Below, one piece after another: positions 46,569 through 55,125 of a stretch of 64,000 bases of DNA. The notes under the pieces are model-generated. The model made no database searches and was not told the origin of the DNA. It was given only the letters and a program-made list of their open reading frames with translations. The stretch spans positions 1-64,000 of IMG/VR virus record IMGVR_UViG_3300012943_000031. One strand, given 5' to 3'. The translations under genes were made by a program, and so were the position numbers. Each line of letters begins with the position of its first letter. The stretch's first letter is position 1. This DNA comes from a virus.

Positions 46569-47675
46569 ATGGCTTGTAACGAACAAAATCCATGCAATCA
46601 AGACCCATGCCCAGATTTATATGACAACTGTGGCTGTGTTAATCCAAATACGTTTGGATGTACTACCTATACAGGGACATCATTAGAATGTCTTGATATA
46701 GACAATGGTACAAATGGGGATGATGTATTGGGTAAAATTGAAGAGGCTGTATGTGACCTTCAGGAGAACAAAGGTAAAGTTCTTATTGATGGCACAGATA
46801 CATGTCCTGAATACCTATTTGATAAACTAGAAGAAGGTACTAATATCTCTTTCAATATCACTGGAACAGGATGTGATAGAAAATTAGTTATTAATGCAGT
46901 AGAAGGTGGTGAACCAGTAGATGTTAATGTAAAAATTACATCTAATGACACAACTTCTGGATACCTTGACCAAAAGATTCAGACAGGTACATACTTAACT
47001 AAATCTGTAGTTTCTCCTACAGCTAATGAAAAACTAAGATTAGACGTAAATGTAGCATCTTTAGTATCTGGAGATTCAGGTAACCAATTAACAATTGGAG
47101 GTGATGGTGGTCTTAAGACTTTATATACTGCACCTGATGGAAGTGAAACTAAGGTTATGCAGGGTACAGGAACTACTGTAACAGGTACTGGTACTGTAAG
47201 TGATCCTTACATAGTATCTACTAACCCGACTATCCAAGTAGCACGTCCATGTTTTGATGGAGTATGGAGAAACATAACATTGGCCCTAACAGGTAATGTG
47301 AATGTTGTTTATGCATCAGGAACACCTCAGTTCAGGTATCGTTTTGATGGTACTATTGAGTTTAGAGGTTCAATTACCTACACAGTTGATTTCGGAGCAT
47401 ACACTACTGCTAACAGAAAATACACCATCCCTATGGGAAGTATTGCTGTAACATGTGTAACTGCTGGTGAATTAATTGGCACAAAAGACTTAAAAGGAAT
47501 AAATTATATAGATGTACCACAGGCTGGTGCTGACCAATATACACAAATGTATGGATACATACTACGTATGTCAGCACAGAACTTAACTTTAGAGTTCCAG
47601 TCTTCGTTTATTAACAGTACATCAAAATCTATAGTGGTTAATTTGGAAGGAGCAGTAGTTCATCCAAATATATAA
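46569..47675 (+). CDS. Putative tail fibre protein
   Basis: Cys-rich N-terminus, repeated VxxxxxDTxxxYLxxK, VTGTGTVSDPY motif, beta-rich C-terminus. Confidence 0.6.
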   Translation: MACNEQNPCNQDPCPDLYDNCGCVNPNTFGCTTYTGTSLECLDIDNGTNGDDVLGKIEEAVCDLQENKGKVLIDGTDTCPEYLFDKLEEGTNISFNITGTGCDRKLVINAVEGGEPVDVNVKITSNDTTSGYLDQKIQTGTYLTKSVVSPTANEKLRLDVNVASLVSGDSGNQLTIGGDGGLKTLYTAPDGSETKVMQGTGTTVTGTGTVSDPYIVSTNPTIQVARPCFDGVWRNITLALTGNVNVVYASGTPQFRYRFDGTIEFRGSITYTVDFGAYTTANRKYTIPMGSIAVTCVTAGELIGTKDLKGINYIDVPQAGADQYTQMYGYILRMSAQNLTLEFQSSFINSTSKSIVVNLEGAVVHPNI

Positions 47676-47720
47676 TAACTATTGAAAACCTCGGTTGTTG
47701 GTTCTCCGAGAACAGTTTAT

Positions 47721-47744
47721 AGGGCCATCTCTATGGCCCTTTTT
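47721..47744 (+). terminator. Intrinsic terminator insulating the tRNA island
   Basis: AGGGCCAT-ctct-ATGGCCCT-TTTT. Confidence 0.75.
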
Positions 47745-47852
47745 ATCTGGCACAATTTTTGAACATTATAAATATAAAAGCTATGACAATCTTAAAAGGT
47801 GGAGGATGTGGATGTGGTGGAAAAAAATAATTTCCCATTTTCACAAAATAAA

Positions 47853-47884
47853 TTTGGAATTTGCCAAATTACTTCGTATATTTG
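47853..47884 (+). promoter_or_regulatory. Promoter of tRNA operon 1
   Basis: TTTG-N20-TATATTTG. Confidence 0.85.
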
Positions 47885-47888
47885 CATT

Positions 47889-47978
47889 ATGAATTTACAT
47901 CGTACACATACATGGTTTACTACTTGTCCCCAATGTCCATTTGGAGGAGAAGGGTGTTGTATGTGTGAAAATAAATAA
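47889..47978 (+). CDS. Leader peptide 1 (attenuator), MNLHRTHTWFTTCPQCPFGGEGCCMCENK
   Basis: ATG 4 nt after the -7 box. Codons 4-18 use only H,R,T,W,F,C,P,Q, the amino acids of the downstream tRNAs. Confidence 0.8.
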   Translation: MNLHRTHTWFTTCPQCPFGGEGCCMCENK

Positions 47979-48039
47979 GTTTTTTCTTATTCATACTTAA
48001 AAACCCTTCAGTAATCCAATCACAACTGAAGGGTTTTTT
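47904..48039 (+). terminator. Attenuator 1 (1:2, 2:3 antiterminator, 3:4 terminator)
   Basis: 1:2 ACACATACA 47904-12 / TGTATGTGT 47958-66. 2:3 GAAGGGT 47949-55 / ACCCTTC 48003-09, plus GTATG/CATAC and AATAAG/CTTATT. 3:4 AAACCCTTCAGT / ACTGAAGGGTTT with U-tract. Confidence 0.8.
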
Positions 48040-48047
48040 CTTTTTAT

Positions 48048-48123
48048 CGGGTAGTGGGAGAATGGTTAGTCCACTATGTTTGGGGCATAGAAAATGTCAG
48101 TTCGAGTCTGATCTACCCGACCA
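48048..48123 (+). tRNA. tRNA-Pro(TGG)
   Basis: Cloverleaf, anticodon arm CTATG-TTTGGGG-CATAG, CCA encoded. Confidence 0.92.
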
Positions 48124-48129
48124 AATAAT

Positions 48130-48205
48130 GCCAGTGTAGCACAACAGGTAGTGCAGTACTCTTGTAAAGTAAAGGTTGCAAGTTCGATTCTTGTCACTGG
48201 CTCCA
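48130..48205 (+). tRNA. tRNA-Thr(TGT)
   Basis: Loop CTTGTAA, CCA encoded. Confidence 0.92.
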
Positions 48206-48213
48206 AATTATAT

Positions 48214-48287
48214 GGCCGTATAGCCAAGTGGTAAGGCACATGTCTGCAAAACTTTGATCCCCAGTTCGAATCTGGGTACGGCTTCCA
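48214..48287 (+). tRNA. tRNA-Cys(GCA)
   Basis: Loop CTGCAAA, U73, CCA encoded. Confidence 0.92.
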
Positions 48288-48290
48288 TAT

Positions 48291-48365
48291 GGTGCACTAA
48301 CTCAATGGTAGAGTTCCTCCCTGAAAAGGAGGGTGTTCCCAGTTCAAGTCTGGGGTGTACCACCA
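48291..48365 (+). tRNA. tRNA-Phe(GAA)
   Basis: Loop CTGAAAA, CCA encoded. Confidence 0.92.
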
Positions 48366-48368
48366 CAT

Positions 48369-48439
48369 ACGGGTATGGTGAAATGGTATCATAACAGTCT
48401 CCAAAACTGCTGTTCAGGGTTCGAATCCTTGTACCCGTG
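48369..48439 (+). tRNA. tRNA-Trp(CCA)
   Basis: Loop CTCCAAA, G73. Confidence 0.9.
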
Positions 48440-48491
48440 CTTTTTCTTATTCCCACATTTCCCTGAGAAATCAAACTTGTGGGTTTCGTAT

Positions 48492-48565
48492 TGTCTCATG
48501 GTGTAATGGCAACATAAGAAGCTTTGACCTTCTTGTTTCAGGTTCGAGCCCTGATGGGACATCCA
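48492..48565 (+). tRNA. tRNA-Gln(TTG)
   Basis: AGAAG-CTTTGAC-CTTCT, CCA encoded. Confidence 0.9.
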
Positions 48566-48570
48566 AATAT

Positions 48571-48641
48571 TACCTTATAGTGTAATGGTAACACACCACT
48601 CTCTGAAAGTGTTGTTTAAGGTTCGAGTCCTTATAAGGTAA
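48571..48641 (+). tRNA. tRNA-Gln(CTG)
   Basis: Loop CTCTGAA. Confidence 0.9.
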
Positions 48642-48643
48642 CT

Positions 48644-48717
48644 GTGACTATAGCTTAATGGTTTAGAGCCCTTGGTTGTGACCCAAGGTAGTGTCAGTTC
48701 GAATCTGATTAGTCACC
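48644..48717 (+). tRNA. tRNA-His(GTG)
   Basis: CTTGG-TTGTGAC-CCAAG, C73; T rather than G at -1. Confidence 0.9.
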
Positions 48718-48722
48718 TAAAT

Positions 48723-48793
48723 GCCCTATTAGTATAATGGAAGTATCTGAGAATACGAATCTCAGGGTAGGAGTTCAAATCTTCTATAGGGTT
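48723..48793 (+). tRNA. tRNA-Arg(ACG)
   Basis: TGAGA-ATACGAA-TCTCA. Confidence 0.85.
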
Positions 48794-48820
48794 CTGGTAC
48801 ACTTCTTGCTATATGAAAGT

Positions 48821-48997
48821 ATGGTAATGAAAGGTAAAAATAAACTAGAAAGAATGGAATTACGTGCTGCTAAAAGATTTAACAGACGTTCTAAGAAAAT
48901 AAAATTCCATCTTACTAATGATTGGAGTTGGACATTTCCTATCCCTAAAGAGGGAATTCCAAAAATAGTTGAAGAAATATTTGGAAACGGCAAATAA
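48821..48997 (+). CDS. Small basic hypothetical protein
   Basis: MVMKGKNKLERMELRAAKRFNRR...; the longer start in the track overlaps tRNA-Arg. Confidence 0.5.
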   Translation: MVMKGKNKLERMELRAAKRFNRRSKKIKFHLTNDWSWTFPIPKEGIPKIVEEIFGNGK

Positions 48998-49011
48998 ATG
49001 TCGTATCTTTG
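48980..49011 (+). promoter_or_regulatory. Promoter of tRNA operon 2
   Basis: TTTG-N20-TATCTTTG. Confidence 0.85.
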
Positions 49012-49038
49012 TATTATAAAATTTAAAAGCAGCAAATA

Positions 49039-49113
49039 ATGTACTTAATAAATATGATAGTGGATAGAATTAATGGGGCAGAGAAATCTGGCTCTGGACT
49101 TCTATTGTCATAA
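49039..49113 (+). CDS. Leader peptide 2 (attenuator), MYLINMIVDRINGAEKSGSGLLLS
   Basis: Codons 4-16 give I,N,M,V,D,R,G,A,E,K, exactly the ten amino acids of the downstream tRNAs. Confidence 0.8.
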   Translation: MYLINMIVDRINGAEKSGSGLLLS

Positions 49114-49177
49114 TCATAGTACTGATTACCAATATTTTAGAAGCCCAGAGCCTACGAAAGTTAGCTCTGGGTTTTTT
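49053..49177 (+). terminator. Attenuator 2
   Basis: 1:2 TATGATAGTGGA / TCTATTGTCATA. 2:3 GGCTCTGGACTTCTA 49090-104 / TAGAAGCCCAGAGCC 49138-152 (14 of 15 pair). 3:4 AGCCCAGAGC / GCTCTGGGTT with U-tract. Confidence 0.85.
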
Positions 49178-49180
49178 AAT

Positions 49181-49253
49181 GCCCTTGTAGCAAACTGGTT
49201 GTAGGCAATAGTCTTTTAAACTATGGGGTCTGGTTCGATTCCAGACGGGGGTA
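49181..49253 (+). tRNA. tRNA-Lys(TTT)
   Basis: ATAGT-CTTTTAA-ACTAT. Confidence 0.88.
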
Positions 49254-49261
49254 CACAATAT

Positions 49262-49333
49262 GCAGGATTAATTCAATGGTAGAAATCCATCTTTACATGG
49301 TGGAAGCTGGGAGTTCGAGTCTCTCATCCTGTA
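49262..49333 (+). tRNA. tRNA-Val(TAC)
   Basis: CCATC-TTTACAT-GGTGG. Confidence 0.88.
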
Positions 49334-49339
49334 CAATAA

Positions 49340-49411
49340 CTCTCTATAGCACAATGGAAGTGTAACTGCCTTCTAAGCAGTTTGGTATAGGTTCGAATCC
49401 TATTAGAGAGT
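49340..49411 (+). tRNA. tRNA-Arg(TCT)
   Basis: ACTGC-CTTCTAA-GCAGT. Confidence 0.9.
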
Positions 49412-49456
49412 CAGGTCAGTTTTCCAATTCTGCGTGGAGTACAAAATTGGATATAT

Positions 49457-49528
49457 TCCTCATTAGCTCAATGGTAGAGCGCAAAGCTGTTAACTTTGGA
49501 GATTTAGGTTCGAGTCCTAAGTGGGGAG
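49457..49528 (+). tRNA. tRNA-Asn(GTT)
   Basis: CAAAG-CTGTTAA-CTTTG, G73. Confidence 0.92.
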
Positions 49529-49538
49529 CATAATTACA

Positions 49539-49613
49539 TGTAGGGTGGACTGGAGATGGTTCCAGCTTGGTCTCATAAGCCAAATGACAGGGGTTCGAAT
49601 CCCTTCCCTGCAT
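49539..49613 (+). tRNA. tRNA with CAT anticodon (Met; initiator vs elongator unresolved)
   Basis: TTGGT-CTCATAA-GCCAA. Confidence 0.85.
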
Positions 49614-49618
49614 CTATA

Positions 49619-49771
49619 CTGTAAGGTGGTGAAATAGGCAGACACATCCACTTGTCTCGTGGACACAGATAAAGAAATAGATTAGGTATAATGGGGTTGA
49701 CCACTAATGTTTAACTTATTGTGTATCTAATTGAATCTCTGTATGAGTGGTTCAAATCCCTCCCTTACAGC
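49619..49771 (+). ncRNA. tRNA-like RNA (GTC anticodon) with an ~80-nt hairpin variable arm
   Basis: Acceptor CTGTAAGG/CCTTACAG, D-arm GTG-AAATAGGCAGA-CAC, TCCAC-TTGTCTC-GTGGA, long hairpin 49664-49744, T-loop TTCAAAT. Confidence 0.7.
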
Positions 49772-49776
49772 AACAT

Positions 49777-49850
49777 TGCACATTAGCCAAGAGGTCTAAG
49801 GCATCACTCTCATAAGGTGACATTCATGAGTTCGAATCTCATATGTGCAA
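49777..49850 (+). tRNA. tRNA with CAT anticodon (Met or lysidine-Ile2)
   Basis: TCACT-CTCATAA-GGTGA, A73. Confidence 0.88.
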
Positions 49851-49879
49851 CATTTGATAATTTTCCTTATATTTGTAAA

Positions 49880-50347
49880 ATGGAAAAGTATTTCAGAACA
49901 GAGCAAGGAGAAAGAGTAAATATAGTTGAACACACTTTGGAACAAATCCAGAAGTGGCCCAACCTAGAGATTTACATAGCAACAGACTCTCAAGACCAAG
50001 GTGGAAAGAGTAGATATGCTACAGTAATTGTCTACAGATATGGGAAAAGAGGTGCTCACTATATATACTTTAGAGAAGACGTACCACGTTGTAAGGACAT
50101 GTATACTCGTCTATATGATGAGGCTGTTCGTACAATTGATACAGCACAGTTAATAGACAGTGAGATACCTGTTAAGTTTGCCGGGTTAGAGTTTGACTAC
50201 AATAACCTACCAAGACATAACAGTAACAAATTACTCTCTTCTGTAAGAGGATGGGTAACAGGATTAAATTACAATGCTGTCTTCAAAGGTGATGAATTAG
50301 TAGCTGCAAAAGCTGCTGACCATGTTTGTAGACACAAGAATATATAA
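49880..50347 (+). CDS. RNase H-like YkuK/DUF458 family protein
   Basis: IYIATDSQ...YATVIV...RLYDEAVRTI...DYN...AAKAAD motifs; ATG after TATATTTG. Confidence 0.8.
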   Translation: MEKYFRTEQGERVNIVEHTLEQIQKWPNLEIYIATDSQDQGGKSRYATVIVYRYGKRGAHYIYFREDVPRCKDMYTRLYDEAVRTIDTAQLIDSEIPVKFAGLEFDYNNLPRHNSNKLLSSVRGWVTGLNYNAVFKGDELVAAKAADHVCRHKNI

Positions 50348-50382
50348 GAGATGGATTGCAGCACTCTTTAAAATGCTGATTT

Positions 50383-50456
50383 GCAGAGGTAGTTAAATGG
50401 TATAATGCCTTCCTTCCAAGTAGGATTTGGGAGTTCGATTCTCCTCCTCTGCTCCA
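50383..50456 (+). tRNA. tRNA-Gly(TCC)
   Basis: Loop CTTCCAA, U73, CCA encoded. Confidence 0.92.
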
Positions 50457-50457
50457 T

Positions 50458-50529
50458 GCATTAGTAGCTCAATGGTAGAGTACTACCTTGCCAAGGTAGG
50501 AGTTGACAGTTCGAATCTGTTCTAGTGCT
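50458..50529 (+). tRNA. tRNA-Gly(GCC)
   Basis: CTACC-TTGCCAA-GGTAG. Confidence 0.92.
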
Positions 50530-50535
50530 CAATAA

Positions 50536-50609
50536 CATGCTGTCATCTAATGGCTTAGGATAACGGACTTTCAATTCGTTCATGTCGGGTTCAATTCCCA
50601 CCAGCATGA
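50536..50609 (+). tRNA. tRNA-Glu(TTC)
   Basis: ACGGA-CTTTCAA-TTCGT. Confidence 0.88.
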
Positions 50610-50632
50610 CTAACAACTAAAGTCGAAGGACA

Positions 50633-51031
50633 ATGAGTAAACAAAGTAACCAAAAGAAGACTGAACAATTGGGTATGCCAATTGGTACAGCAAGTAATAG
50701 ATTGAGGAAATCAATTATCTTTAATCTGTTAAAGAAAGCAAATGAGAATTTCTGTTTCCAATGTGGAGCAGAAATAGAATTAGAGAATGAATTATCAATA
50801 GAACATAAGACTCCATATCTGGATTCTGAAGACCCACAAGGTCTGTTCTTTGATTTAGATAATATAGCTTTTTCTCACCTGTCATGCAATGTAGGTGCTG
50901 CAAGACAGACTCATAGAGTAAAGAATCATGGCCTGACTCTCTACAAAGATGGTTGTAGATGTGGTATTTGTGTGACAGCACAAAAAGAATCTTGGTCAAA
51001 ATATGATAAGAAGAGAAGAGTAAAAACGTAG
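50633..51031 (+). CDS. HNH endonuclease (free-standing, homing-type)
   Basis: CFQCG...LSIEHKTP...NIAFSHLSCN and C-terminal GCRCGIC. Confidence 0.8.
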   Translation: MSKQSNQKKTEQLGMPIGTASNRLRKSIIFNLLKKANENFCFQCGAEIELENELSIEHKTPYLDSEDPQGLFFDLDNIAFSHLSCNVGAARQTHRVKNHGLTLYKDGCRCGICVTAQKESWSKYDKKRRVKT

Positions 51032-51103
51032 GTGTAGTGTAACGGTTTAGCATATCTGCCTGTCACGCAGACGGTAGGAGTTCGAATCTCCCATCTACGG
51101 CCA
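51027..51103 (+). tRNA. tRNA-Asp(GTC), apparent 8/4 fold
   Basis: CGTAGGTG/CATCTACG 8-bp acceptor plus G-CCA, 4-bp T-stem GGAG/CTCC, anticodon arm TCTGC-CTGTCAC-GCAGA. Confidence 0.88.
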
Positions 51104-51105
51104 AT

Positions 51106-51178
51106 GTTGTTGTAGCTTAATGGTTAAAGCTCATGTCTTATACACATGTGAGTGAGAGTTCGAGTCTCTCCAACAACA
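51106..51178 (+). tRNA. tRNA-Ile(TAT)
   Basis: CATGT-CTTATAC-ACATG. Confidence 0.88.
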
Positions 51179-51187
51179 CACAAATAT

Positions 51188-51262
51188 GTTGATATAGCTC
51201 AATGGTGGAGCACTTGTCTGATACACAAGAGGATGAAGGTTCGAGTCCCTCTATCAACACCA
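51188..51262 (+). tRNA. tRNA-Ile(GAT)
   Basis: CTTGT-CTGATAC-ACAAG, CCA encoded. Confidence 0.92.
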
Positions 51263-51265
51263 TAT

Positions 51266-51338
51266 GGGGGTGAAGTTCTAGTGGATGAACACCTGTCTTG
51301 CACACAGGAAGTTGTGGATTCGAGTTTCACCACCTCCA
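51266..51338 (+). tRNA. tRNA-Ala(TGC)
   Basis: G3.U70 pair, CCTGT-CTTGCAC-ACAGG. Confidence 0.9.
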
Positions 51339-51341
51339 CAT

Positions 51342-51372
51342 AACCTACTGATAATCAGTCAGTAGGTTTTTT
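51342..51372 (+). terminator. Terminator ending tRNA operon 2
   Basis: AACCTACTGA-taatcag-TCAGTAGGTT-TTTT. Confidence 0.8.
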
Positions 51373-51409
51373 ATTTGGTAAACTGGCAGGATTTTTGTAC
51401 CTTTATAGT

Positions 51410-51883
51410 ATGATAACAGCAATAGTTATGCTCAGTATAGCACTTATAGTGGCAATTCTTCTTCTCCTTAGAAAGGAGGAATGTGAAGAGTCAGGATATA
51501 TTGAAATATCATTTATTATTAATAATACAAAAATAACAGGAAAAAACATGGCATTAACAGCATTCCCACAACAAAAAACACCTTTCATTCTACAGCCGGT
51601 AGATAGAAAAGGTAATCCAGCACAAGTTGAAGCTGGAACAGTAGTTTTCACAGTAGATGATCCATCAATTGCAGAAGTTCAGGTAGACCCAACAAATGAG
51701 TTGGCAGGTACTATCATAACTAAAGCAGTAGGTGTAACACAGATTAATTATTCTGCTGATGCTGACTTAGGAGAAGGTGTAACAACTATTTCAGGTTTTG
51801 ACGCAATTGAAGTTAAAGCTGAACAAGCAGTTGGATTTGGTATCACTTTTGGCCCATCAGAGGACATAGAGGAAACACCTTAA
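51410..51883 (+). CDS. Membrane-anchored Ig-like (Big-2-like) protein
   Basis: TTTG-N20-TACCTTTA promoter, N-terminal TM, FTVDDPSIAEV...ITKAVGVTQI pattern; an alternative ATG lies at 51548. Confidence 0.6.
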   Translation: MITAIVMLSIALIVAILLLLRKEECEESGYIEISFIINNTKITGKNMALTAFPQQKTPFILQPVDRKGNPAQVEAGTVVFTVDDPSIAEVQVDPTNELAGTIITKAVGVTQINYSADADLGEGVTTISGFDAIEVKAEQAVGFGITFGPSEDIEETP

Positions 51884-51891
51884 AAGAAAAA

Positions 51892-51923
51892 TTTGGAATT
51901 TTATTCTCAGTACCGTATATTTG
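51892..51923 (+). promoter_or_regulatory. Promoter of the suppressor tRNA / Pth2 unit
   Basis: TTTG-N20-TATATTTG, overlapped by a 12-bp inverted repeat (51908-51941). Confidence 0.8.
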
Positions 51924-51934
51924 TGAAAGTATAC

Positions 51935-52006
51935 GGTACTGTAGTTTAATGGCAAAACAGCAGTCTCTAAAACTGAATAGTGTGGGTTCGATCCCCATCA
52001 GTACCA
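51935..52006 (+). tRNA. Amber suppressor tRNA (CTA anticodon)
   Basis: Acceptor GGTACTG/CAGTACC, A73, CAGT-CTCTAAA-ACTG, GTGGG-TTCGATC-CCCAT. Confidence 0.88.
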
Positions 52007-52023
52007 CAATTAAACCAAATACA

Positions 52024-52500
52024 ATGAGTAAGTAGATGGAAATCCAGAAACTGGTAACTGTGACCAGAACTGACTTACCTGAAGGTTATCAGGCAGTACA
52101 GTCAACACATGCAGCAATTGATTTTGTTTTTGAACATCCTACACGTGCTGGCCCTTGGCATAAAAACAGTAATACGTTAGTGATGTTAACAGTAAAGGAC
52201 ACGAAAGGTCTCCTTCACCTAATGAGGAAGTGTGATTATCTGTCTATAGCTTATACTGTTTTCAGGGAACCAGATATTGGTAACCAAATCACAGCCATCT
52301 GTATGGAGCCTCATGAGGAGGTTTACAAGATGGTTAGTAAGCTACCTTTATTAATACCAAAAACACAATCAAATGAATACCAAGACACTATCAATCAAAG
52401 CCAAGTTAGCCAACCAAGTGAGAACAATCTTCTACAAGAAGTGGGATGTGACGAAAATCACAGAACACGAACAGAAGAGGATGTTGAGAGAGTTAGCTGA
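52024..52500 (+). CDS. Pth2-family peptidyl-tRNA hydrolase-like protein, with in-frame TAG at codon 4
   Basis: KLVTVTRTDLPEGYQAVQSTHA...LVMLTV...FREPDIGNQITAI fits the PTH2 pattern. ATG AGT AAG TAG ATG at 52024-52038, with the A-rich leader before the first ATG. Confidence 0.75.
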
Positions 52501-52648
52501 GTTAACTAAAGAAGTTCACTATGAGTTAAATCTCTACAAGGGTAAGAGAAGAGATAAGAAAATACTCTTAGAAAAGAGGTTAGAAGCCCCTCAAACAAAG
52601 ACCATGAAGAAGAAACTGAAAGGTCACAGAAAAGAAATTTCAAAATAA
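52373..52648 (+). CDS. Basic hypothetical protein
   Basis: ORF track; AAAAACACAATCAA leader. Confidence 0.55.
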   Translation: MNTKTLSIKAKLANQVRTIFYKKWDVTKITEHEQKRMLRELAELTKEVHYELNLYKGKRRDKKILLEKRLEAPQTKTMKKKLKGHRKEISK

Positions 52649-52649
52649 A

Positions 52650-52681
52650 TTTGGAAATCGTGAAAAAAGGTTGTATATTTG
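52650..52681 (+). promoter_or_regulatory. Promoter of tRNA operon 3
   Basis: TTTG-N20-TATATTTG. Confidence 0.85.
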
Positions 52682-52685
52682 CAGT

Positions 52686-52733
52686 ATGAAAATAACATCA
52701 ACATATAGTTCCTTGTCGTTACTCTATAGCTAA
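52686..52733 (+). CDS. Leader peptide 3 (attenuator), MKITSTYSSLSLLYS
   Basis: Codons 7-15 are only Y,S,L, the amino acids of the downstream tRNAs; ATG 4 nt after the -7 box. Confidence 0.8.
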   Translation: MKITSTYSSLSLLYS

Positions 52734-52814
52734 TAGAGCCGGGAATACTATGTGTCAAAAATAACTATCTTGATTTTACATAACATGACCCGGTATTTCT
52801 ATACTGGGTTTTTT
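52702..52814 (+). terminator. Attenuator 3
   Basis: 1:2 CATATAGTTCC / GGAATACTATGTG with inner CTCTAT/ATAGAG. 2:3 CCGGG 52739-43 / CCCGG 52789-93, plus TATGTG/TACATA. 3:4 ACCCGGTAT-ttct-ATACTGGGT-TTTTT. Confidence 0.78.
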
Positions 52815-52821
52815 GTTTTAT

Positions 52822-52895
52822 GGCATTGTGATGGAACTGGGATACATACCTGTCTTAGAAACAGTTTTTTGTGGGTTCGAATCCCACCTTTGCCA
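52822..52895 (+). tRNA. tRNA-Leu(TAG), short variable region
   Basis: CTGT-CTTAGAA-ACAG; acceptor stem has two T.T mismatches. Confidence 0.8.
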
Positions 52896-52898
52896 CAT

Positions 52899-52977
52899 GC
52901 TCCTATGGTGGAACGGTATACACGTCAGACTTAAAATCTGATCTTAATTGATGAGAGTTCGAATCTCTCTAGGAGCA
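52899..52977 (+). tRNA. tRNA-Leu(TAA)
   Basis: TCAGA-CTTAAAA-TCTGA, A73. Confidence 0.9.
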
Positions 52978-52978
52978 C

Positions 52979-53204
52979 AACAACCATAAACTATCGAGTT
53001 ACAACTTGCTGGGTACTTACTGGGTACTTGCGGGGTGTAATTAGGAAACTCAGCACATCTCTGCTTAAAATGGGAGGACTAGCAATCCGTTATTACCAAA
53101 GAGGATGAAACTCAAACAGACTAAGAAGGTGAGCAGTTCTATGAAGTCGGGTTAGAGGATTAGACAAATGATAGTTGATACAGAAAGCTGGTTATTGGGT
53201 TGTT
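52979..53204 (+). ncRNA. rnpB: Minimal RNase P RNA (~226 nt)
   Basis: P1 AACAACC/GGTTGTT, P2 AACTATCG/TGATAGTT, CR-I AGGAAACTCAGC, TAGACAAATG, CR-V ACAGAAAGCTGGTTA; P4 AAC(T)CAGC/GCTGGTT with the bulged U. Confidence 0.82.
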
Positions 53205-53209
53205 AAATT

Positions 53210-53299
53210 GGTGGGCCCCAGATGACAGAGGTACTCCGTCTTGAAAACGGCTATAACGGTAATCATTCCGTTGTAAGGGTTGGACTCCCTTGCCCACCT
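53210..53299 (+). tRNA. tRNA-Ser(TGA), atypical D-arm and T-loop
   Basis: GGTGGGC/GCCCACC, CCGT-CTTGAAA-ACGG, long variable arm, T-loop TTGGACT. Confidence 0.78.
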
Positions 53300-53306
53300 C
53301 AAATAA

Positions 53307-53396
53307 GGAGAATAGACGAATATTGGTTTGTCGTAACTACCTGCTAAGTAGTTCTGTGTAACAGCAGTAAGAGTTCAATTCTCTTATTCTCCGCCA
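53307..53396 (+). tRNA. tRNA-Ser(GCT)
   Basis: ACTAC-CTGCTAA-GTAGT, variable arm, G73, CCA encoded. Confidence 0.9.
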
Positions 53397-53400
53397 ATAT

Positions 53401-53473
53401 GGGATAGACAGCAGGGCACTGTAGACGGTCTGTAAAACCGAACTATGTAGAGTTTCGAATACTCCCTATCCCA
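53401..53473 (+). tRNA. tRNA-Tyr(GTA), short variable region
   Basis: GGGATAG/CTATCCC, A73, CGGT-CTGTAAA-ACCG. Confidence 0.8.
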
Positions 53474-53512
53474 CATTAACTTTTCTTTAACAGAAAAAAG
53501 TCTTACCTTTGT

Positions 53513-53537
53513 AGCCTCCTTCGGGAGGTTATTTTTT
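53513..53537 (+). terminator. Terminator ending tRNA operon 3
   Basis: AGCCTCC-TTCG-GGAGGTT-ATTTTTT. Confidence 0.75.
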
Positions 53538-53823
53538 GCCACCCAGTTATGGTACTGAGGTAAACGCCTACACGAGGTAGGATAGTTCCTTACAGAAGTT
53601 GGATTGGTAGCCCTAAATAAGGGTGAGATTTTCTCCAATAGTGGCGCAATGTTTTGAGTAAGAGGTAGTTGGTATCCAAGGGATTGGTCATTTCTATGAC
53701 GTGTGAGGAGGATACTGGGGTAACAATGCACTGGCTATCTTCAAGTGAGAAACAGTAAGTTAAAAAATTCATAAGGGATTGGTGTGTCTAATTGATGGCA
53801 CATTAATTGATTACATATTAAGT

Positions 53824-55125
53824 ATGATTATAAACAACATAACACAGAAATTTTTAGACAATCCGGGATACCTGAAAAATGGTGCTGGATACTTAGCAGA
53901 ACAATGGAAATGTTCAAAGGACGAAATTTATGAGGCCAAATCACAAGCCAGACAAATAATGGCAATGACTGAGGCAATAGAAAGAGCTAATGATACAGCA
54001 AACAGTTTTGAAGTTCAGGTTAAATCAGAACCACTGAAGTATACTGGATCAGAAACTACTCCAGATGGAACTGTAAAGAAATACGAATCAGACAAACCTC
54101 TAACACCAAAAGAAATCGAAGAGTTAGCAGGAGTTGATGGGATAAATACATACGTAGCTAGAGTTTGGGATAAGTTACTACCAAATGGTAAATGGACATA
54201 CTCAATCGATATTAGATACAGAGTAAAAGATTTCTATGATAGAAAGGAGCTAAACAGTAAGTTACTGGAAATCATGTCTTCTGTAGAAAGAACACCATTC
54301 AATCCAATGTCTGTTCCAAAAGGATTTAACAATAGATGCTTAAACATTCTCCTAGCTGATGACCACGTAGGTGCAATCAACGTAACTAACTTGTTTGATA
54401 ATCCTCATGTCACCTATAGGGATAGACTGTTAATGATACTAGATGAAGTAGCAGATTTGGGACAGGAATTTGATGAGGTACATATCATCTCATTAGGTGA
54501 CCAACTAAATGGATGGAACTCTCAGACTACTAGAGGTGGTCATGAGGTAAAGAGTAAGAGCAATAAGGAACAGTTTGACGAGTATGTTGCTGCAAGAATG
54601 GAGTTCTATACTAACATATTTGAATCAGGAATATCTCAGAACTACTATGTACATGATGTGGAGAACAGTAATCACTCAGGTCTGGGAATGTCATATATGG
54701 CTAATCAGGCACTGAAGTTGTGGATAGATGCAAAATATCCTTGGGTAATCCAAGAATCCATAACTGACATGGTAGGTGGGTTCCAATATGGACAACATGT
54801 TGTTATGTTTGGACATGGTAAGGATGAGAAATTCCAGATCAGACCTATGCCAGCAGTACTAAATGACAAGACTGACTTGTTTTTATATGACTTAGCACAA
54901 AATAAAGGTTACTCACCATATAATGATTCAATCACTTTCTATAAGGGAGACTTACACCAGCATGGTTTACAGAATGGTAAGTTTGGTAGATATGTGAATG
55001 TACAATCATTGGCCGGTAATTCCGACTATGGTGACTTAAACTTTGGAAATACTAAAGGTGGGGCTCTACTTGAAATACTACAAAAAGATAGTTACAAGAT
55101 AACCTCACAAGCAATTTGGTTCTAA
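53824..55125 (+). CDS. Calcineurin-like metallophosphoesterase-fold protein
   Basis: LADDHVG, SLGDQLNG, NSNH, GHG and GDLH motifs; ATG at 53824. Confidence 0.75.
   Translation: MIINNITQKFLDNPGYLKNGAGYLAEQWKCSKDEIYEAKSQARQIMAMTEAIERANDTANSFEVQVKSEPLKYTGSETTPDGTVKKYESDKPLTPKEIEELAGVDGINTYVARVWDKLLPNGKWTYSIDIRYRVKDFYDRKELNSKLLEIMSSVERTPFNPMSVPKGFNNRCLNILLADDHVGAINVTNLFDNPHVTYRDRLLMILDEVADLGQEFDEVHIISLGDQLNGWNSQTTRGGHEVKSKSNKEQFDEYVAARMEFYTNIFESGISQNYYVHDVENSNHSGLGMSYMANQALKLWIDAKYPWVIQESITDMVGGFQYGQHVVMFGHGKDEKFQIRPMPAVLNDKTDLFLYDLAQNKGYSPYNDSITFYKGDLHQHGLQNGKFGRYVNVQSLAGNSDYGDLNFGNTKGGALLEILQKDSYKITSQAIWF

Follow-up and report, generated by a model that had tools for sequence, protein, structure and literature searches.

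Why phages carry transfer RNA (tRNA) genes, and when these are used, is an old question, for which the ideas put forward include codon compensation and the replacement of tRNAs destroyed by defence systems. It is raised in a particular form by a virus record from IMG/VR (IMGVR_UViG_3300012943_000031; 106,836 bases, CheckV completeness estimate 72%), of which positions 1 to 64,000, hereafter the window, were analysed. At 52650-53537 of this window a short open reading frame (ORF) rich in leucine, serine and tyrosine codons and a transcription terminator precede tRNA genes for the same three amino acids, and the question is whether translation of the ORF decides the transcription of the tRNAs.

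The evidence described below argues that the tRNA operon is preceded by a leader-peptide transcription attenuator of the ribosome-mediated type, a reading to which a probability of about 0.7 is assigned. The ORF, its Leu/Ser/Tyr (L/S/Y) core, the terminator and a co-varying antiterminator are all present and are kept in five related phages. The initial annotation of this locus had proposed an attenuator of this kind, and that proposal is borne out by the fixed-register start, the L/S/Y core, the position of the terminator before the first tRNA and the covariation between antiterminator and terminator arm. Other parts of the annotation, concerning the tRNAs and an RNase P RNA (rnpB), stand in modified form.

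The leader and its core codons

The elements that precede the first tRNA gene of the unit are the following.

52650-52681, + strand: Bacteroidota-type promoter, TTTG(GAA)-N20-TATATTTG, a pattern match with predicted function
52686-52733, + strand: leader ORF MKITSTYSSLSLLYS-stop, 15 codons, ATG at 52686, TAA at 52731-52733
52704-52730, + strand: core YSSLSLLYS, TAT AGT TCC TTG TCG TTA CTC TAT AGC (run search in six frames)
52701-52755, + strand: predicted 1:2 hairpin of leader codons with the post-stop stretch, region 2 being partly buried (full-length minimum free energy fold, -31.9 kcal/mol)
52738-52743, + strand: region 2, GCCGGG, predicted 5' strand of the antiterminator, beginning 5 nucleotides (nt) after the stop and pairing with 52789-52794
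52787-52819, + strand: intrinsic terminator, GACCCGGTAT-TTCT-ATACTGGGTT and then TTTTGTTTT (terminator scan)

The element from promoter to terminator measures about 170 nt. Its ATG sits 4 nt 3' of the -7 box and the leader mRNA is, for this reason, probably leaderless or nearly so. Reading the codons back from the ORF confirmed the list given in the initial annotation, namely five Ser codons (TCA, AGT, TCC, TCG, AGC), three Leu codons (TTG, TTA, CTC) and TAT twice. Across the six frames of the 64-kb window only one run of at least nine L/S/Y residues occurs, that at 52704-52730 (mean in shuffled windows, 0.285), in a phage where L+S+Y make up 18.2% of the residues, and this core ends about 90 nt upstream of exactly Leu, Ser and Tyr tRNA genes. 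All five codon boxes decoded by the five downstream tRNAs are included in the core. Several leader codons are rare in the phage (TCG, 1% of Ser codons; AGC, 4%; TCC, 9%; CTC, 4% of Leu codons), and the occurrence of five all-different Ser codons has P = 0.012 under its own codon usage.

Conservation of the leader in related phages

Relatives were recovered using the exonuclease-like neighbour gene and a degenerate leader pattern as baits. Five related phages carry a Leu/Ser/Tyr unit: L002, from IMG/VR, whose neighbour gene is 59% identical; L005 and L007, which are metagenome contigs; and L053 and L054, located in G004 and G005, respectively, the latter a complete genome of 164,315 bases with terminal repeats. 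Leu, Ser and Tyr tRNAs follow the leader in each of them. The leaders are listed below with region 2 and the 5' arm of the terminator.

Window: leader as above; region 2 GCCGGG; terminator 5' arm CCCGGU
L002: leader MKRINSYYSSLSLLSKDIELG-stop; core SYYSSLSLLS; tail KDIELG; region 2 GAGCUGGG; terminator 5' arm CCCAGCUC
L005: leader MKKLLSYSSSSLLYLRILE-stop; core LLSYSSSSLLYL; tail RILE; region 2 GGAAUAGG; terminator 5' arm CCUAUUC
L007: leader MHIRSLYYSSLSLLSTTSTGIVLH-stop; core SLYYSSLSLLS; tail TTSTGIVLH; region 2 CUGGAA; terminator 5' arm UUCCAG
L053: leader MKTITSYYSSLSLLIKSRAGRTM-stop; core SYYSSLSLL; tail IKSRAGRTM; region 2 GCUGGA; terminator 5' arm UCCAGC
L054: leader MKKLLSYYSSLSLLNLQEIGNSMF-stop; core LLSYYSSLSLL; tail NLQEIGNSMF; region 2 AUUGGGA; terminator 5' arm UCCCGAU

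The ATG register is shared by the six units, TAT being codon 7, and an in-frame stop just before or inside region 2 is kept in all six. The cores of the relatives consist of L/S/Y only and extend over 9-12 residues in varying order, and their tails are unrelated in sequence and length. When the window or L005 is compared with the other four, a replaced core codon always gives another member of the L/S/Y set; thus in AGC versus TCA Ser is kept although all three bases differ. The fixed register, the permutation of the core within L/S/Y and the unrelated tails together argue that the leader is selected for which tRNAs it calls for and not as a peptide. All six leaders contain CTC and TCC; the tRNAs detected in the window could read these codons only by U:C wobble (UAG and UGA anticodons), and they could be the leader positions most sensitive to shortage.

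Among the loci seen, the attenuator appears to be restricted to one phage family, given that unrelated phages with a similar tRNA-Leu lack the leader: a conserved tRNA-Leu 20-mer retrieved other, unrelated phages with Leu tRNAs, none of them with the leader. In bacterial and archaeal genomes (one per species, 185,579 species) the leader pattern gave 110 matches, none followed by tRNAs. A BLAST search of 47600-53600 against 50,697 phage records returned scattered tRNA and HNH matches and no close relative, and the Pth2-like neighbour gene used as bait in IMG/VR returned nothing. The exonuclease-like bait retrieved many loci, most of them without tRNA arrays, and in a protein search relatives of this gene were also found on contigs of at least 160 kb.

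Terminator, antiterminator and folds

The terminator hairpin of the window (52787-52810) has a predicted stability of -13.0 to -13.2 kcal/mol and a T-run at 52809-52814, hairpin and T-run ending 3-12 nt before the tRNA. Across the six units the terminators range from -13 to -18 kcal/mol. A segment complementary to the unit's own terminator 5' arm is found in all six, either in the peptide tail or just past the stop. With RNAduplex the own pairs of region 2 and arm averaged -12.25 kcal/mol versus -7.94 for 30 cross-locus pairs, and 4 of the 720 permutations of region 2/arm assignments were as good as the own pairs. In the window, CCGGG (52739-43) had been suggested to pair with the terminator arm or to be sequestered in a 1:2 hairpin, and both pairings were recovered, the former with CCCGG (52789-93) in nascent folds and the latter, in part, in the full-length fold.

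Nascent folds were computed for the transcript up to but excluding the 3' arm of the terminator, a ribosome being represented by masking the A-site codon plus 12 nt. With the mask at the first or a middle core codon, region 2 sequesters the 5' arm of the terminator in 6/6 units; a mask at the stop codon hides region 2 and keeps the arm free, again in 6/6. When no ribosome is placed, the core codons pair with region 2 as a 1:2 hairpin in 4/6 units, and the arm stays free.

Proposed mechanism

We infer the start of transcription, the translation of the leader, the coupling of ribosome and polymerase (in a host that is probably a member of the Bacteroidota) and the response to tRNA supply from sequence. 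Transcription would start a few bases upstream of the ATG at 52686, and a ribosome would translate the 15-codon leader while the polymerase proceeds. With Leu-, Ser- and Tyr-tRNAs in plentiful supply, the ribosome would reach the UAA (52731-52733) and mask GCCGGG (52738-43), allowing the hairpin at 52787-52810 to form, and transcription would halt at the T-run ahead of the first tRNA. If any of these tRNAs were scarce or uncharged, a stall within YSSLSLLYS would open the 1:2 hairpin, GCCGGG would pair with CCCGGU, the terminator would be precluded and the polymerase would read through, yielding Leu(UAG), Leu(UAA), a mini RNase P RNA, Ser(UGA)-like, Ser(GCU) and Tyr(GUA). The tRNAs and the ribozyme are thus probably made only when ribosomes run short of these tRNAs. 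As the products are the sensed molecules, the circuit would constitute direct negative feedback on tRNA supply.

The stop codon of the leader deserves comment. The TAA of the window directly precedes TAG, and the leaders of L005 (1185-1187) and L054 (2748-2750) end in TAG. Should the relatives also encode a CUA suppressor tRNA, late read-through of TAG could drive ribosomes to or into the terminator and override attenuation.

Sister units in the window and beyond

On the + strand of the tRNA region the promoter pattern occurs at exactly four sites (47853, 48980, 51892 and 52650), and at three of them (47853, 48980 and 52650) it is followed by a short ORF, a hairpin with a T-run and a block of tRNAs. 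The leaders of the other two units, A and B, read MNLHRTHTWFTTCPQCPF... and MYLINMIVDRINGAEK..., and their cores are limited to the amino acids of their own tRNA blocks. The amino-acid sets of the three leaders are nearly disjoint, with Arg alone being shared (CGT in leader A, AGA in leader B), and together the three units span all 20 amino acids. In the three leaders of G004 and G005, as in leaders A and B of the window, the own-set runs comprise 9-15 residues and the other-set runs at most 5. Leader B of the window and that of L002 contain the same ten amino acids in a different order.

A reduced version is found in L028 (7420-7585), whose first unit has tRNA-Cys only and comprises a promoter, the leader MVMNQNKYQPCCTQCPIEGGCIICIKK-stop, an antiterminator (GAGGGTGGT versus ACCACCCT) and a terminator. 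Five Cys codons are kept in this leader and the His, Arg, Trp and Phe codons are gone, the leader content tracking the reduced tRNA content. L029 likewise carries a single tRNA-Cys.

A more far-reaching proposal, put forward here tentatively, is that the three units form a three-channel, codon-resolved sensor of the usable tRNA pool in which each channel switches on the missing tRNAs, the Leu/Ser/Tyr channel adding a self-encoded RNase P. If this were the case, the trigger could be, for example, host anticodon nucleases or the phage's own shut-off depleting host tRNAs, and the minimal RNase P would process the burst of precursor tRNAs. Leader-peptide attenuation would then, for the first time, be seen to control tRNA genes according to demand, and the phage would be a natural example of a virus that regulates its own enzyme for tRNA maturation.

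Two further short ORFs were noted in these regions. A Gly/Cys micro-ORF motif, GGGCGCGG(K), is conserved in the window (47784-47831), L002 (~475-537), L166 (4399-4506) and L167 (reverse strand, sORF 1507). In the window (MTILKGGGCGCGGKK-stop) and L002 it is a separate small ORF just 5' of the unit A promoter, whereas leader B of G005 carries it as a C-terminal fusion (...LLLSGGGCGCGGK-stop) and leader A of G004 has it at the N-terminus (MILDTNIYGGCGCGKPK...). It is a candidate Gly/Cys codon sensor or G-rich RNA element. In L005 a short ORF at 459-515, MNTDMNYRRRRYIIPLGN-stop, contains four consecutive Arg codons (AGA CGA AGA AGG) and at its end overlaps tRNA-Arg(ACG) by one base, tRNA-Arg(UCU) coming next; as no terminator stands between this ORF and the tRNA, it would have to work differently if it is a sensor.

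Points against attenuation and alternative explanations

Several observations weigh against leader-peptide attenuation. The six leaders are homologous and not independent, four of them (L002, L007, L053 and L054) sharing a near-identical 23-nt core, and L053 and L054 have no consensus promoter directly upstream of the leader. In L037, Ser-Ser-Tyr tRNAs stand behind a terminator and the leader is absent, from which it follows that such tRNAs can be carried without this control. By chance, a core would cover all five codon boxes about half the time. The idea of isoacceptor sampling, put forward in the initial annotation, has only modest statistical support. In the absence of a ribosome the nascent transcripts of the window and of L005 fold into the antiterminator, whereas in classical attenuators lack of translation leads to termination. 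The antiterminator of the window is the shortest of the six (6 bp including a G-U) and amounts to about -12 kcal/mol against about -13 kcal/mol for the terminator. It is seen in nascent folds with the ribosome mask and not in the equilibrium fold of the whole leader; equilibrium folds of the full transcript always give the terminator (in the window, plus the 1:2 hairpin), and the switch would consequently rely on kinetics.

Other mechanisms could produce a similar arrangement. The element could be a translation-coupled attenuator that senses general translation capacity, such as ribosome availability or host shut-off, with codon content being secondary. In the folds the RNA outcome is the same whatever slows the leading ribosome, and initiation could be the limiting step, given that 4 nt separate the -7 box from the ATG. 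This explanation is nevertheless unlikely, as it accounts neither for three nearly disjoint leader sets, each equal to its own tRNA set, nor for replacements between phages that stay within the set, nor for the fact that CTC and TCC, rare as they are (4% of Leu and 9% of Ser codons, respectively), occur in six of six leaders. The short ORF could instead encode a functional micropeptide or have arisen by chance, the hairpin and T-run acting as an insulator from upstream transcription or as a processing site. The cores of L002, L007, L053 and L054 are nearly identical in nucleotides, as a conserved peptide would be, and the CxxC...CxxC spacing of leader A recalls a zinc knuckle. A peptide function is hard to reconcile, however, with the permuted residue order of the window and L005 cores at constant composition, with the different order of ten identical amino acids in the B leaders of the window and L002, and with tails that are unrelated in sequence and length and yet each encode the complement of their own terminator arm; moreover, the promoter lies upstream of the terminator, so that the hairpin cannot serve the preceding gene alone. 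Taken together these data make a micropeptide or a chance ORF, with a hairpin that insulates or marks a processing site, very improbable.

The switch might also be made of RNA only, with the leader triplets pairing with tRNA anticodons in the manner of a T-box, or binding a protein, and translation playing no part. The tRNAs would then be sensed, as in T-box leaders, and the 1:2, 2:3 and 3:4 alternatives exist independently of a ribosome. On the other hand, no Rfam match to a T-box was obtained in 52600-53800 at E values up to 10, and no other cis-regulatory Rfam family scored meaningfully in the window or in 52600-53800. The fixed-register ATG and the stop at region 2 in six units would be needed by a translated leader only, and known T-boxes read a single specifier codon rather than a series of 9 to 12. 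We give this explanation very little credence, the least of those considered.

The tRNAs and the end of the unit

The genes for tRNAs and the end of the unit under the control of the putative attenuator are listed below.

52822-52896, + strand: tRNA-Leu(UAG), 75 nt, short variable loop (ARAGORN; Rfam tRNA, 50.1 bits)
52899-52978, + strand: tRNA-Leu(UAA), 80 nt (ARAGORN; Rfam tRNA, 63.8 bits)
53210-53299, + strand: tRNA-Ser(UGA)-like, long variable arm, T-loop UUGGACU (alignment with Ser(UGA) of four relatives; fold)
53307-53396, + strand: tRNA-Ser(GCU), 90 nt (ARAGORN; Rfam, 41.9 bits in the E-value scan of 52600-53800)
53401-53474, + strand: tRNA-Tyr(GUA), 74 nt, short variable loop (ARAGORN, at relaxed threshold only)
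53511-53537, + strand: final terminator of the unit, T-run 53532-53537 (terminator scan)

The content Leu/Leu/Ser/Ser/Tyr assigned in the initial annotation holds for three canonical tRNAs (Leu UAG, Leu UAA and Ser GCU), the Tyr GUA and Ser UGA-like genes being atypical. The latter, with its non-canonical T-loop UUGGACU, was missed by ARAGORN and Rfam; its CUUGAAA anticodon loop is invariant with the canonical Ser(UGA) of the relatives, and both have a long variable arm. tRNA-Tyr(GUA) folds as a cloverleaf with compensatory changes in 13 of 22 pairs across three phages. tRNA-Ser(GCU) was not listed in the gathering-threshold Rfam scan of the whole window.

Bacterial Leu and Tyr tRNAs normally bear a long extra arm. 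The earlier remark that the unit holds the amino acids of class II tRNAs is correct with regard to amino-acid identity and not with regard to structure, since the Leu (75 and 80 nt) and Tyr (74 nt) tRNAs of the phage are not class II. Short variable regions are thus seen in the phage Leu and Tyr tRNAs, and L002 has two Tyr(GUA) genes, one with a long and one with a short arm. A permuted transfer-messenger RNA at 53073-53396 and intron-bearing tRNAs, reported by ARAGORN at lowered threshold, were set aside as threshold artefacts.

An RNase P-like RNA within the unit

Between tRNA-Leu(UAA) and the Ser(UGA)-like tRNA lies a further RNA gene.

52979-53209, + strand: minimal RNase P-like RNA, 231 nt, specificity domain (S-domain) absent (Rfam RNaseP_arch; homologs; RNAalifold)

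Its best Rfam match is the RNaseP_arch model, over positions 12-276 with 19.9 bits (E 0.002 in a 1.2-kb search), a score below the gathering score of 84 and below every Rfam gathering score, and it is absent from the scan in gathering mode. In the Rfam alignment the S-domain (P7-P14) is deleted, 14+14+89 model positions standing against 11+10+18 nt, the elements of the catalytic domain are retained and the ends abut the tRNAs on either side exactly. The conserved 5' (AGGAAA...) and 3' (ACAGAA...GG.UUA) stretches pair in this alignment with one nucleotide bulged; more precisely, AGGAAACUCAGC and ACAGAAAGCUGGUUA can form the helix AAC(U)CAGC/GCUG-GUU with one bulged U, which we take to be the counterpart of P4 in E. 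coli M1 RNA. The 231-nt RNA resembles type A RNase P RNA (E. coli M1, RF00010) in its P4 motifs AGGAAA(C)UC and ACAGAAAGCUGGUUA, in P1 and in UAGACAAAUGAU, which is arranged as in the 3' region of M1, and it resembles the minimal archaeal type T RNase P RNA in the absence of the specificity domain. It differs from both in being encoded by a phage, in its length of 231 nt and in its location between tRNA genes.

Two homologs were found in distant phages. That of the IMG/VR contig L001 is 195 nt long and is followed by tRNA-Ser GGA, and that of the 642-kb phage LR756502.1 (L027), first found as a 71% BLAST match, scores 32.4 bits (E 3e-6) over the full length of the model. RNAalifold on the three sequences gave 17 of 39 pairs that co-vary and a long-range P4 (columns 73-80 with 219-225, column 76 being skipped) with compensatory changes in LR756502.1, and in the terminal P1 helix the window and L001 differ by two compensatory changes. 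Given that the core motifs and the bulged P4 are kept with compensatory changes in three distant phages, selection appears to act on ribozyme structure, and the data point to a real, selected, S-domain-less RNase P-like RNA and not a full rnpB. Alternatively, this RNA could be the relic of an RNase P RNA that is decaying or not catalytic, or it could act as a decoy for the protein of RNase P, in either case without a role in processing. Its score far under the gathering threshold, the missing specificity domain and its absence from every close relative examined, the complete genome included, agree with that view, while the selected structure and the exact abutment to tRNAs, as expected for an RNA freed by tRNA processing, speak against it, and a relic or decoy is regarded as somewhat doubtful.

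The placement of rnpB inside the regulated transcript, as originally annotated, is upheld insofar as the RNase P-like gene lies between two terminators and has no recognisable promoter of its own; the gene is RNase P-like without an S-domain and is not conserved. On the + strand no -7 box and no terminator-like site occurs in 52820-53504, which would place all six RNAs in one unit, and most simply the ribozyme belongs to the gated transcript in the window phage. A covariance model built from the window, L001 and LR756502.1 sequences scores 213.6 bits on 52979-53209 and gave no hit in the relatives, whether in their loci or in their whole records, G005 included; at the corresponding position these contain a spacer of 4-74 nt or another tRNA. 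Since the relatives, one of them a complete genome, are without the ribozyme, its gating appears to be a lineage-specific insertion and not a conserved design.

Relation to known regulatory systems

The unit resembles the trpL, hisL, leuL and pheL attenuators in its codon-rich short ORF, its 1:2, 2:3 and 3:4 helices and its intrinsic terminator upstream of the first regulated gene; the choice between helices would depend on where the ribosome stands, as it does in the trp operon. It is multivalent like the enterobacterial thrL and ilvL leaders, as three amino acids would be sensed. In contrast to attenuators of biosynthesis operons, the gated genes are not those that make or handle the sensed amino acid but five tRNAs and a ribozyme, the product itself being the sensed molecule. 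The unit is phage-borne and its mRNA probably leaderless, its leader samples five codon boxes and retains the rare wobble-read codons CTC and TCC, and three units with nearly disjoint sets (Arg shared) cover all 20 amino acids. With T-box riboswitches the phage element would share the sensing of the tRNA pool and a terminator/antiterminator choice in the 5' leader. A T-box, however, binds one uncharged tRNA through a specifier codon and the T-box sequence, does not need a ribosome and controls genes for aminoacyl-tRNA synthetases and amino acids, whereas the phage unit keeps a translated ORF.

Phage tRNA arrays have been viewed as codon supplements or as substitutes for the tRNAs that host defences cleave (PMC10264068, PMC11464382), and the window phage resembles the tRNA-array phages described there in being large and having about 30 clustered tRNA genes. 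As their abstracts indicate, both papers concern the purpose of phage tRNAs, and the tRNA-cutting defences they describe would provide a plausible reason to sense tRNA shortage. A literature search conducted mostly outside subscription journals found neither leader-peptide or demand-sensing control of tRNA genes nor a phage-encoded RNase P RNA. If the attenuator reading is correct, at least one phage family makes tRNAs on demand, and trp-type attenuation extends to a new class of genes whose product is the signal. The element of about 170 nt could be turned into a transferable reporter that shows, in live cells, how available particular tRNAs are, and the RNase P-like RNA would represent a small ribozyme, minimised by nature, with its expression linked to the supply of its substrate.

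Genome context and additional observations

A portal gene and a gene for a virion structural protein are present in the window, together with 28 tRNA genes detected by ARAGORN, 26 of which lie on the + strand at 48048-53396 and include a CUA-anticodon suppressor tRNA. The pattern TTTG-N17-23-TAnnTTTG, which we take to be the Bacteroidota promoter consensus in a host that is only probably of this phylum, is enriched in the window (9 matches versus 2.8 expected). At 51892 it lies 11 nt upstream of the CUA suppressor tRNA, a distance that limits the possible start point of transcription.

The stretch from the final terminator to the next gene (53538-53844) consists of about 300 nt without a long ORF, and no Rfam match was obtained in 53538-53800 at E values up to 10. 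Unit B contains an HNH endonuclease gene (50633-51031; phrog_23251, E 6e-35) whose last codons overlap the start of tRNA-Asp (51027). Between two tRNA-Met genes, a segment of 162 nt (49615-49776) shows tRNA-like acceptor pairing (CTGTAAGG...CCTTACAG) and the T-loop motif GGTTCAAATCC; ARAGORN run with introns and a lowered threshold reports it as a tRNA with a 74-nt intron, and it may be an intron-bearing or degenerate tRNA.

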